From: Dehalococcoidia bacterium
GTDB taxonomy: Bacteria; Chloroflexota; Dehalococcoidia; GIF9; UBA5629
Length of the DNA stretch: 64,000 nt
Direction of reading: 5' to 3'
Assembly (NCBI GenBank): GCA_016930155.1
Contig: JAFGHL010000093.1
Span: forward strand, 38,339 to 102,338
The translations under genes were made by a program, and so were the position numbers. The notes below the pieces were generated by a model, which made no database searches, was not told where the DNA came from, and saw only the letters and a list, made by a program, of their open reading frames with translations. This document shows positions 50,830 to 53,587 of the stretch, one piece after another. Positions within the stretch are counted from its first letter, which is position 1; each line of letters begins with the position of its first letter.

Positions 50830-51945
50830 TCAGACCTGCGGCATAACATCACGGATATCTCCAAAACAGGTCCCCACCGACCTGGCCGAGACTATTAAAG
50901 CGTCGCCGACGGGCACACGCCTCTGTCCGCGCGCAACTTCCTCCAGAGACACTTCCACCAGGTCGTTGCCCTTAACCCCAACCATCTGGCCGAAGCGGCC
51001 TTCCATCAGCATATCCACAGCCTTCGTACCCAACCTGGTGGCGAGCACCCTGTCGAAGGGAGTGGGCACGCCACCCCGCTGCAGGTGGCCAAGGACAACC
51101 GTACGTGTTTCAATCCCCGTCTCAGCTTCAATTTCAGATCCCAGCACAAAGCCAATACCGCCGAGTCGTATCGGATCCGTGCTTTCCTTGACGATCCGCT
51201 GAACCACCTTTTCCCCTCCCTTGGGCCTGGCGCCCTCAGAGATAACCGTGATGGTAAATCTCTTGCCCCGGCAGTCTCTGTCATTCACTTTTTCAGCGAT
51301 GATATCGAGGTCATAGGGGATCTCAGGGATAAGTATAACGTCCGCCCCGCTGGCGATACCTGCTTGCAGAGCGATCCAGCCGGCGTTGCGCCCCATCACT
51401 TCCACGATCATCACACGGTGATGCGACTGCGCGGTGGTGCGCACACGGTCCAGCCCTTCCGTGGCAACGTACACTGCAGAATCGAAGCCGAATGTGATAT
51501 CCGTGCCCCTAATATCATTATCGATGGTCTTGGGTATGCCGATCACAGGCAGTCCGTCCTTATACAACCTGTTAGCTATGCTCAGAGTGCCGTCGCCGCC
51601 GATACACACCAGGCATTCAACCTCCAGACGGACGAAATTATCAATAACGGCCTGCGACAAATCCTTGAACTCCAGGGAGCCCTCTTTTTTAACCGGACAC
51701 CTGTAGGGGTTAGCTTTATTGGATGTGCCCAGTATGGTTCCGCCCAAATTGATAATGCCGGACACATCCTCGTAATGTAGTATCCGGTGCCGGTTGTGCA
51801 GCAACCCCTCGTAACCATCCGATATCCCCACCACTTCCAGCCCCAGCTCGAGCATGGCCTTCTTGGCCACTGCGCGGATAACAGCGTTTATTCCCGGGCA
51901 ATCACCTCCACCCGTCAGGATGGCTATTTTGCTTTTTTTTGCCAC
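50830..51945 (-). CDS. pfkA: 6-phosphofructokinase (PfkA family)
   Basis: IAILTGGGDCPGINAVIR, CIGGDGTLS and IGIPKTIDNDI. Confidence 0.9.
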   Translation of the reverse strand: MAKKSKIAILTGGGDCPGINAVIRAVAKKAMLELGLEVVGISDGYEGLLHNRHRILHYEDVSGIINLGGTILGTSNKANPYRCPVKKEGSLEFKDLSQAVIDNFVRLEVECLVCIGGDGTLSIANRLYKDGLPVIGIPKTIDNDIRGTDITFGFDSAVYVATEGLDRVRTTAQSHHRVMIVEVMGRNAGWIALQAGIASGADVILIPEIPYDLDIIAEKVNDRDCRGKRFTITVISEGARPKGGEKVVQRIVKESTDPIRLGGIGFVLGSEIEAETGIETRTVVLGHLQRGGVPTPFDRVLATRLGTKAVDMLMEGRFGQMVGVKGNDLVEVSLEEVARGQRRVPVGDALIVSARSVGTCFGDIRDVMPQV

Positions 51946-51965
51946 AGATTAATATCCCGGATTGC

Positions 51966-52154
51966 TTACTTCTTTCCGCAGGATTGGGCGCTGAACATTG
52001 TCAGCAATATCCCAAGCCCGAGCGCCGCAAGCGCCACCGGGCAGGGCAGCGGCCAGCCGAATAAAGGATTGGGAATTCCGGCAGCCATCAGAACGGCATC
52101 GAGTATGAGCAGGAAACCGGCGATGATCAGCAATATTTTACCAGCTTTAAACAT
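51966..52154 (-). CDS. Small hypothetical membrane protein (2 TM segments)
   Basis: 62-aa ORF ending 20 nt upstream of pfk on the same strand. A G-rich RBS-like GGGGGTG precedes the ATG. Confidence 0.45.
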   Translation of the reverse strand: MFKAGKILLIIAGFLLILDAVLMAAGIPNPLFGWPLPCPVALAALGLGILLTMFSAQSCGKK

Positions 52155-52304
52155 ACAGCACCCCCCATGTTGATTTGCCTTATCATTAGAGTATCACGTT
52201 GGAAATTCACAGTCCATATCAAAGGTTGTACAATCTAAATACGGGACTGAAAAATATGATAGCGTCAACGGTTTCAACAGTCATTAAAGCAAAGGAGGTG
52301 CGCT

Positions 52305-52721
52305 ATGTCAGGTAAATTTGCACTTACCCTCGGCGGATGGGTGCTTGGCCTTATCATTTCAGCCATAGTCATTGTCCTGGCCGCTGCATTGCTCGGCGGA
52401 TACCTGTGGGGCAACGGCAGCGGATATCAGTCAGGCTACGACCGGGGAAAAATCGATGGAGACAAGGCCGGTTTCACCAGGGGATACGAGAACGGGCAAA
52501 AAATCGGATATGACCTGGGATTCCAAGCCGGCGACAAAGCGGGATATGACAAGGGAAACAAGGCCGGCTATGACGAAGGCTATACCAAGGGCAAGGACCA
52601 GGGCTATCAGGAAGGAGAAACGACTGGATACAATAAGGGGCTGCGGGAAGGATACAATTCCTGCATAACACCCTATTATTACTATCCCTGGTACTTCAGA
52701 GGCGGGCCCTTTTATTATTGA
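52305..52721 (+). CDS. Membrane-anchored protein with 22 consecutive GX3 repeats and a Tyr/Pro-rich C-terminus
   Basis: N-terminal TM segment (LGGWVLGLIISAIVIVLAAALLGG), then Gly at every 4th residue from G32 to G116. AGGAGG RBS. Confidence 0.7.
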   Translation: MSGKFALTLGGWVLGLIISAIVIVLAAALLGGYLWGNGSGYQSGYDRGKIDGDKAGFTRGYENGQKIGYDLGFQAGDKAGYDKGNKAGYDEGYTKGKDQGYQEGETTGYNKGLREGYNSCITPYYYYPWYFRGGPFYY

Positions 52722-52757
52722 TGACGAAAGGATTTTGATATTCGGAAACGCGACGGG

Positions 52758-53495
52758 GTGTTGTCCAACAGGCTGCTGCTGGTCTGTATCATAGTCGCCC
52801 TGATCCTGCTGGCAGCAATAGCCGCGGCTACTGTTTTTTTTAAAGATGCGGCCGCTGTGCAGTGGATCTTCAGGGCTGCGGATATCGTTCTTCACATCGA
52901 TATTTACCTTGAGGCGCTTATTCAGCAGTATGGCCCTTTTGTCTATGGCCTGCTGTTCCTCGTCATATTCTGCGAGACAGGCCTGGTGGTTACGCCCTTC
53001 CTCCCCGGGGATTCGTTGCTTTTCGCGGTGGGCGGATTTGCAGCGCTCGGCGCGCTGAATTTATGGTTATTGATTCTGTTGATGTGGCTGGCCGCCGCGC
53101 TTGGTGACAGCTTCAATTACTTCATTGGCAACCGTATCGGTGAACAGGTCTATATCAGGGACTATAAATATATCAAGAGGGAATATATCGACCGGACTCA
53201 CGCTTTTTTTGAAAAATACGGCGGCTGGGCCATAGTGCTGGCCCGATTTGCACCGATCCTCCGAACTTTCACTCCTTTCGTGGCAGGCGTCGGCAAAATG
53301 AACTACCCCAGGTTCCTTTTCTACAATGTAACGGGCGGCCTGTTATGGGTAACGGTCTTTATATTGTGCGGCTACTTCTTCGGCAACCTGCCTTTCGTGC
53401 GAGATAACTTCTCCATTTTTATACTGGCCATAATCGTCGTCTCTCTGATCCCGGCGGCAGTTGAACTTTTCAAACACTGGAGGGCCAACCGCTGA
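52758..53495 (+). CDS. DedA/VTT-domain membrane protein with an extra N-terminal TM segment
   Basis: LHIDIYLEALIQQYGPFVYGLLFLVIFCETGLVVTPFLPGDSLLF closely follows E. coli DedA-family proteins. Confidence 0.85.
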   Translation: MLSNRLLLVCIIVALILLAAIAAATVFFKDAAAVQWIFRAADIVLHIDIYLEALIQQYGPFVYGLLFLVIFCETGLVVTPFLPGDSLLFAVGGFAALGALNLWLLILLMWLAAALGDSFNYFIGNRIGEQVYIRDYKYIKREYIDRTHAFFEKYGGWAIVLARFAPILRTFTPFVAGVGKMNYPRFLFYNVTGGLLWVTVFILCGYFFGNLPFVRDNFSIFILAIIVVSLIPAAVELFKHWRANR

Positions 53496-53587
53496 AGCCG
53501 CTCAAGTGGTACAAAGAGCTGTCGGCCCATAAAAGCAGGCTGGCAACGGGCGCATTTCTGCTGGAAGGTCCGCGCGCCGTCGACCAG

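Follow-up and report, generated by a model that had tools for sequence, protein, structure and literature searches.

A membrane-anchored protein with 22 uninterrupted GX3 units from a Dehalococcoidia bacterium: a possible glycine-stripe rod of the cell envelope

The stretch of DNA that was analysed (64,000 nucleotides, here called the window) contains a short gene for a protein of 138 amino acids in which glycine returns at every fourth residue, i.e. a GX3 repeat. The features of the gene and its surroundings are collected in Table 1. The gene order is PAS-GGDEF cyclase, phosphofructokinase (minus strand), a 62-aa protein with two transmembrane (TM) segments (minus strand), the GX3 gene, a DedA/VTT gene and a SpoU methyltransferase. 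The DedA gene follows the GX3 gene on the same strand after a gap of 37 nt without a terminator-like site, and the two are possibly co-transcribed.

Table 1. Features at the GX3 locus (positions are those of the window)
Feature	Position	Strand	Basis
Promoter-like site TTCACA-17-TACAAT, about 70 nt 5' of the start codon	52206..52234	+	consensus scan, 10/12 matches
Shine-Dalgarno sequence AAGGAGGT, 6 nt 5' of the ATG	52292..52299	+	read from sequence
Gene of the GX3 protein, 138 aa, stop codon included	52305..52721	+	ORF list
N-terminal transmembrane anchor, about residues 6-31, ALTLGGWVLGLIISAIVIVLAAALLG	52320..52397	+	Kyte-Doolittle and AF2
Period-4 array of 22 Gly, G32-G116	52398..52652	+	sequence; Pfam Yae1_N above threshold
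C-terminal tail, aromatic/proline-rich, YNSCITPYYYYPWYFRGGPFYY	52653..52718	+	sequence
154-aa antisense ORF over the repeat and the DedA start (shadow frame, not a gene)	52431..52895	-	187 synonymous vs 1277 non-synonymous differences
DedA/VTT-family membrane protein gene, downstream	52758..53495	+	Pfam VTT_dom, 1.8e-23

Glycine occupies all 22 positions 32, 36 and so on to 116, and the sole off-register glycine within the run is G38. The codon of G32 begins at 52398 and that of G116 ends at 52652, exactly as the initial annotation had it, while the final unit, GYNS, extends to 52661. After the glycine (position x1), 11 of the 22 units have Tyr and 2 have Phe, so that 13/22 or 59% have one of the two, and unit by unit the sequence agrees with the list in the initial annotation. 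Also confirmed are the other two elements described there, the N-terminal TM helix before the run (a hydrophobic segment at about residues 6-31, with a peak mean of 2.91 in a 19-residue Kyte-Doolittle window) and the aromatic tail after it, which is present as ITPYYYYPWYFRGGPFYY and ends in ...RGGPFYY. Residues 32-138 are composed of Gly to 23% and Tyr to 17%, and carry 13 acidic and 13 basic residues. When these residues were shuffled 100,000 times the longest in-register glycine run was 9, with a mean of 2.9, and the probability of 22 in-register glycines from a given start is about 1e-14 at fG = 0.23. Tandem Repeats Finder detected no DNA-level repeat, thus the period is maintained in the protein sequence rather than produced by recent slippage.

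Since a 154-aa ORF overlaps the gene in antisense, the coding frame needed testing. Among 10 orthologues the variable sites are distributed over codon positions 1, 2 and 3 of the plus frame as 29, 10 and 95, and the pair-summed codon differences amount to 1640 synonymous vs 557 non-synonymous. The GX3 ORF is a real gene under purifying selection. In the antisense frame the proportion is reversed (Table 1), and in L007, one of the orthologues, the frame is broken by a stop codon; taken together these exclude the antisense ORF as a gene. One could still suppose that there is no gene at all, i.e. that the periodic frame is a mere side effect of the antisense ORF or of repetitive DNA that is non-coding. 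The sheer length of the overlapping frame would fit this, and so would two empty searches: an exact look-up in a collection of 15 billion proteins, in which neither the window protein nor the antisense ORF is present, and a word-index homologue search with 145 candidates and zero significant ones. However, the codon differences, with purifying selection in the plus frame and none in antisense, already refute the supposition, and the conserved ribosome-binding site and promoter-like box as well as the existence of paralogues and 1,446 database relatives also stand against it, so that we give it practically no weight. In the search of representative proteins this gene family was represented by one 49-aa fragment only. 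A general lesson for annotation is that antisense frames of such repeats yield long false ORFs.

The upstream signals are well conserved. GGAGGTG ahead of the ATG is invariant in six orthologous loci, and the block ATCACGTTGGAAATTCACAGTCCATATCAAAGGTTGTACAATCTAAATAC (about 50 nt, within 52180-52240), which holds the promoter-like hexamers, is near-invariant in six genomes, whereas the flanking intergenic DNA diverges. We infer a promoter function for TTCACA-17-TACAAT from its sequence and conservation. The block has additional conserved bases upstream of the hexamers, which could be an operator. An Rfam scan of 51900-52900 gave no match, hence no riboswitch clue.

The neighbour survey that the initial annotation proposed brought out a stable order, DedA adjacency included, in the orthologous loci that were checked, but no specific functional clue. 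The block of phosphofructokinase, 62-aa protein, GX3 and DedA genes (about 2.7 kb, window 50830-53500) is wholly missing in a more divergent sub-clade or sister clade of the genus, where SpoU stands directly after the GGDEF gene (L027) and the sole phosphofructokinase, 43% identical, is found elsewhere in the genome. The four-gene block has no GC anomaly. Because it is missing as a whole, the GX3 gene is clade-specific and its neighbours offer no specific hint of function. A functional link between GX3 and DedA from their co-occurrence was considered and rejected, as the whole block comes and goes together and not just the pair.

The homologue survey, likewise proposed at the outset, returned the 10 orthologues, paralogues and the database relatives. 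The orthologues come from genomes of the same genus and are 84-94% identical. Loss of repeat length or period among homologues had been named as a reason to abandon the original reading; exactly 22 units are found in 10/10 orthologues and the register is preserved among homologues too, so that the reading withstands this check. In the tail, which keeps its character among the orthologues, P123, Y127, P128, Y130, R132 and P135 vary little or not at all. The closest relatives outside this group are P0004 (52% local identity) and P0006 (46%), which have comparable tails, ...SPWPYFRYFRTLP and ...FWPFPFHHFWPQP respectively, and the indels within the repeat relative to these two are exactly 4 residues long, with no others. 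Conservation by repeat position follows the order G (0.99) > x1 (0.89) > x2 (0.84) > x3 (0.73). The fixed unit number, the four-residue indels, this order and the absence of a DNA repeat are counted here in favour of a structural constraint that would act on the protein.

The repeat itself is not new. Pfam Yae1_N (PF09811) matches the window protein in two stretches with 33.3 bits vs a gathering score of 27.5 (E = 4e-08), which bears out the original comparison with the GX3-type repeat of Yae1/Lto1. The hmmscan of the window protein gave no Pfam family besides Yae1_N and a weak Ses_B, and no Gly-zipper family turned up, even with E values as high as 10 allowed. NCBIfam FliH models reach 25-39 bits vs cut-offs of 180-293 with the alignment confined to the repeat, and the FliH domain PF02108 is absent from the window protein, from its own genome and from 10 genomes of the genus. 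The initial annotation had known of no characterised bacterial counterpart, and here it has to be corrected: the GxxxG repeat segment of FliH/YscL is such a counterpart (PMC2674601, PMC4523923), and NCBIfam FliH models match the repeat of the window protein. What is uncharacterised is the membrane-anchored architecture, not the motif.

The two known systems are both cytoplasmic. The primary glycine-repeat segment of FliH/YscL has the form AxxxG(xxxG)m xxxA, in which m averages 2-10 (Trost & Moore 2009, PMC2674601), its x1 residue is Tyr or Phe in more than 45% and the repeat is predicted to be helical (PMC2674601). Two different eukaryotic proteins form a heterodimer through their deca-GX3 motifs, and in yeast less Yae1-Lto1 complex is formed when glycines in the deca-GX3 motif of Lto1 are mutated (PMC4523923). 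A Yae1-type pair has been modelled by AlphaFold as an intertwined coiled coil in which the Gly interface is unbroken (PMC12810181), and the C-terminal Trp of Lto1, within the tripeptide [LIM]-[DES]-[WF], docks on the CIA targeting complex (PMC4523923, PMC10245660). The window protein resembles Yae1/Lto1 in having Gly at every fourth residue, often an aromatic residue next to it, and a score beyond the Pfam gathering score. However, Yae1/Lto1 are soluble cytosolic adaptors of eukaryotic Fe-S assembly with 10 units, while the window protein is bacterial, membrane-anchored, probably extracytoplasmic and has 22; Lto1 ends in Trp, the window protein in ...GGPFYY. With FliH/YscL it shares a bacterial GxxxG array, Tyr/Phe at x1 and Glu, Gln and Ala as common residues at x3, but FliH regulates the flagellar ATPase in the cytoplasm and has a C-terminal FliH domain, and the window protein has a TM anchor and no such domain. 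As the remaining defining features of both families all failed, the window protein, judged by its sequence, shares the repeat pattern of Yae1_N and FliH and is a member of neither protein family. Matches to FliH or Yae1 models that cover the repeat alone are thus not to be taken as FliH or Yae1. The same pattern is found here in another setting, i.e. membrane-anchored, probably outward-facing and with 22 units under purifying selection.

Among 1.84 billion representative proteins, searched exhaustively with HMMER, 1,446 matched at E <= 1e-3, of which 123 were at E <= 1e-10. Among the best 150 of the 1,446, uninterrupted runs go up to 92 units and at least 30 units are present in 48 proteins. 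The length stressed originally, i.e. twice that of the Yae1 motif, is therefore unexceptional in this company. The x1 residue is Tyr or Phe in 57% of 4,842 units of database relatives, and a hydrophobic N-terminal segment precedes the repeat in 86 proteins of the best 150 plus P0151, a protein of the same genome described below. Pfam Yae1_N was matched by 106 out of 114 relatives scanned. The same 114 show sporadic co-domains, i.e. Phage_tail_C (5), zf-AN1 (3) and single instances of FliH, LRR_5, Lcl_C, CBM_5_12, JAB and others. In Chloroflexota the motif is rare (8/301 genomes), and it was absent from 14 model genomes at the thresholds used. A tblastn search against phage genomes gave a single short match, so few because the low-complexity filter strips the repeat, and PHROGs matches were solely to families of unknown function.

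The public names of those relatives that were looked up are "hypothetical protein" or "FliH". The latter label (in IMG, 'flagellar biosynthesis/type III secretory pathway protein FliH') is wrong for P0019, a TM protein, and for the P0026 cluster, a lipoprotein, and in both cases it was given because of the repeat alone. In the titles and abstracts of the papers that a search for PF09811/Yae1_N returned, no treatment of such proteins is apparent. The window protein is thus one of more than 1,000 GX3 proteins that recur in metagenomes, and among those found here none has been studied.

On which side of the membrane the repeat lies is a question that the window protein answers poorly by itself. 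Its flanks are near-neutral, with one Lys in the N-flank and zero Lys+Arg in the first 15 residues after the TM segment, and so the topology rests on relatives. Flank charges were compared in 37 proteins in which a hydrophobic segment immediately precedes the repeat (33 database hits plus the window protein, its two paralogues and P0151), and Lys+Arg was higher in the N-flank than in the C-flank in 23/37 and lower in 5/37. In the closest relatives, i.e. P0004, P0006 and the G020 paralogue, the N-flank is strongly basic, e.g. PRKKNEATGITLSK. Moreover, P0026 carries a lipoprotein signal, P0002 a signal peptide and P0058 a Zn-ribbon before the TM segment. Given the basic flanks, lipoboxes, signal peptides and a cytoplasmic Zn-ribbon of the relatives, the repeat is most likely outside the membrane and the N-terminus cytoplasmic. 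The co-domains Phage_tail_C, LRR_5, Lcl_C and CBM_5_12 are counted for the outside location as well, with the qualification that zf-AN1, FliH and JAB occur too.

The opposite orientation would make the protein a cytoplasmic stator or peripheral stalk, with the helix pointing inward and holding or regulating a soluble partner, e.g. an ATPase. Precedents are FliH for FliI and the membrane-anchored b subunit for the F-type ATP synthase. Subunit b has one N-terminal TM helix followed by a very long helix, and its dimer is an unusual right-handed coiled coil. The overall build of the window protein, i.e. one N-terminal TM segment and one long helix in about 140 aa, is like that of subunit b, and the indecisive flank charges of the window protein itself leave room for this orientation. 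FliH-type repeats also operate in the cytoplasm (PMC2674601). However, subunit b has no glycine repeat and its helix is cytoplasmic, whereas the relatives of the window protein point outward by their basic N-flanks and, in many cases, by the signal peptides or lipoboxes that precede the repeat. The tails of the paralogues, rich in Cys and Pro, have an extracytoplasmic look, too, and the FliH domain is absent from the genome and genus, the hmmscan having given only Yae1_N and the weak Ses_B. On balance the stator appears very improbable to us.

The AF2 monomer model has helix at residues 4-75, 78-82 and 86-120, with a mean pLDDT of 49 and a pTM of 0.25; pLDDT is highest in the TM anchor (71-73) and below 55 over the repeat. 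In other words, the monomer prediction that had been recommended gave a helix, but at low confidence, and the repeat is to be regarded as helical with this reservation. Low confidence is expected for an isolated long helix. It would also be expected for a largely unstructured, low-complexity Gly/Tyr polymer at the surface, i.e. a flexible linker, a hydrogel or a cross-linkable matrix reminiscent of plant glycine-rich wall proteins or adhesive Tyr-rich proteins. The Gly and Tyr content fits this alternative, glycine usually breaks helices, and the HMMER search also retrieves low-complexity inserts such as that of the Plasmodium pyridoxal kinase. Nevertheless, disordered linkers do not hold a perfect period of 4 across 88 residues, nor are indels in multiples of four, a fixed unit number and the conservation order G > x1 > x2 > x3 linker-like. 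As the repeat of FliH is predicted to be helical (PMC2674601) and the Yae1-type AlphaFold models are helical coils (PMC12810181), we think a disordered polymer distinctly unlikely.

No comparable solved repeat structure was found by sequence and profile searches of the PDB. The matches to OCM3, to the insert of Plasmodium pyridoxal kinase and to an archaeal pilin N-terminus (E = 0.33) were discarded as low-complexity or chance, and a type IV pilin-like N-terminus was rejected in view of the missing G/F-T-L-I-E-type cleavage motif. The lack of an experimental structure of a long array was remarked upon in 2009 already (PMC2674601). The 107-residue soluble part of the window protein would be a convenient target for the structure of a continuous GxxxG coiled coil.

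Our preferred reading, which we hold as quite possible though short of probable, is a glycine-stripe rod outside the membrane that pairs with itself or with a paralogue and serves as a stalk or spacer in an envelope probably without peptidoglycan. Within it, the structural part deserves more confidence than the whole and the envelope role less. The protein would be a bitopic envelope protein with its N-terminus in the cytoplasm and its C-terminus outside, and residues 32-119 would form a single continuous alpha-helix, on which the 22 glycines make a stripe free of side chains, alongside which the x1 residues form a Tyr/Phe stripe. Pairs or larger groups of such helices would pack stripe to stripe, an arrangement also proposed for FliH dimers and Yae1-Lto1, with partners that are further copies of the same protein or paralogous GX3 membrane proteins of the same genome. 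On a helix of 3.6 residues per turn a period of 4.0 makes the Gly stripe drift by 40 degrees per unit. Because the period is 4.0 and not 3.6, stripe contact would demand a tight right-handed supercoil, with a pitch of about 50 Å and a continuous contact of the glycophorin type. The 88 residues would then give a stiff rod of about 12 nm that stands on the membrane and keeps the aromatic/proline-rich tail at a fixed distance from it. The tail probably contacts another envelope component, e.g. the S-layer, which is named here as a candidate partner only. While the topology is taken from relatives, we infer the pairing, the supercoil geometry, the rod length and the spacer role. Fibres, sheets or a docking rail had been suggested at the outset; a paired rod or stalk outside the membrane fits the evidence better than a sheet.

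It is useful to compare such a rod with membrane systems in which glycines are spaced alike. Small residues four apart allow a close approach of helices at a right-handed crossing angle. Judged by geometry, the GX3 array would be the close GxxxG contact of glycophorin A ('GAS-right') repeated continuously. However, glycophorin A has one or two units inside the membrane among hydrophobic neighbours, whereas the window protein has 22 in a polar, charged and water-exposed segment. Transmembrane glycine zippers, too, sit in a hydrophobic, membrane-embedded segment, in contrast to the window repeat region with its equal numbers of acidic and basic residues.

The question of partners leads to the paralogues. 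One paralogue type, with a TM segment and 25-26 units, shares about 40% identity over residues 2-120; its last units read GWxxGWxxGWxxGWWQGCxxCWQ and a Pro-rich tail follows. Nearly all genomes of the genus have it, as do other genera of the family, and more distant genera have 15-16 units. The genome of the window encodes four membrane-anchored GX3 proteins, with 22, 25, 25 and 11 units. The two 25-unit paralogues, C78:13970-14515 (-) and C25:10108-10629 (-) (loci L009 and L010), have the Trp stripe, the CxxC and the Pro-rich tail. Both adjoin a gene of the histone-deacetylase family, and the C78 paralogue also adjoins a membrane protein of about 105 aa and a PBP_like_2 ABC transporter. The C78 and C25 copies are near-identical, which may partly reflect the 8% contamination of the MAG. 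In genome G008 the paralogue is followed in tandem by another GX3 gene, of 199 aa.

The fourth protein, P0151, is encoded at C79:17580-18128 (+) (L011:3081-3629) and has 183 aa, which comprise a TM anchor, 11 GX3 units and, at the C-terminus, a domain that no Pfam family matched. It was modelled by AF2 with pLDDT 70-87, and the best Foldseek match was the MOA protease domain (E = 3e-3, probability 1.0), followed by Mac-1/IdeS, staphopain, vasohibin, protein glutaminase and TgpA. The model is best aligned with a papain/transglutaminase-like cysteine peptidase fold, and a Cys/His/Asp set is conserved in 4/5 relatives. Several of these relatives are dense in N-x-S/T sequons. On the strength of the predicted fold, the combination of TM anchor, 11 GX3 units and a papain/transglutaminase-like domain is counted in favour of the use of GX3 arrays as stalks in this very genome.

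The presence of four such proteins could also mean that the window protein acts as a heteromeric adaptor in the manner of Yae1-Lto1, i.e. that it pairs with the 25-unit GW/CxxC paralogues or with the 11-unit papain-like protein and joins different tails or domains at the cell surface. The heterodimerisation of two different deca-GX3 proteins in eukaryotes (PMC4523923) is a model for this, and in some relatives two GX3 genes stand in tandem (L017). But the unit numbers 22, 25 and 11 differ and the GX3 genes are unlinked in the genome. Furthermore, the sister clade keeps the 25/26-unit paralogue without a window-type gene, so the paralogue can do without the window-type protein. We consider an obligate adaptor of this kind rather unlikely.

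The envelope in which the preferred rod would stand is itself poorly understood in Dehalococcoidia. Dehalococcoides and Dehalogenimonas have been reported to be without peptidoglycan, and an S-layer is found in some cultivated Dehalococcoidaceae (PMC10284905). The PBP transpeptidase domain (PF00905) was detected in 0/17 genomes of this Dehalococcoidales lineage (the genome of the window and 16 relatives), compared with 10/14 control genomes. By this measure the envelope of the lineage is probably without peptidoglycan, and the absence of PF00905 and PF02108 is consistent with a non-flagellated cell of that kind. The GX3 protein is a candidate for a role in envelope architecture. We see its relevance as moderate, chiefly for structural biology and for the envelope of Dehalococcoidia.

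The GX3 repeat was so far known from FliH/YscL and Yae1/Lto1, and a class may be proposed beside these, in which an unbroken array of 8 or more GX3 units begins right after an N-terminal TM segment or signal peptide, with the N-terminus inside. The window protein has the anchor and the array, and with own flanks of 1 vs 0 Lys+Arg its orientation is probable on the strength of the relatives. A wider and speculative generalisation, which we put forward as doubtful, is that surface proteins of prokaryotes and phages contain in long GX3 arrays, of 8 to more than 90 units, a structural element that has gone unrecognised. Such arrays would pack continuously by GxxxG contacts into a tightly right-handed coiled-coil rod, its length adjustable in four-residue steps of about 0.55 nm, and the Dehalococcoidales rods of 22, 25-26 and 11 units would fix or span the distance from membrane to S-layer and present tails or enzymes at defined heights.

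A further glycine-periodic frame of the same genome was recorded at C37:25954-26649 (-). It is an unannotated open frame of 232 aa with a central run of about ten GMGR units and 12 Gly in period-4 register, and it is probably unrelated to the GY-type repeat because its composition differs.
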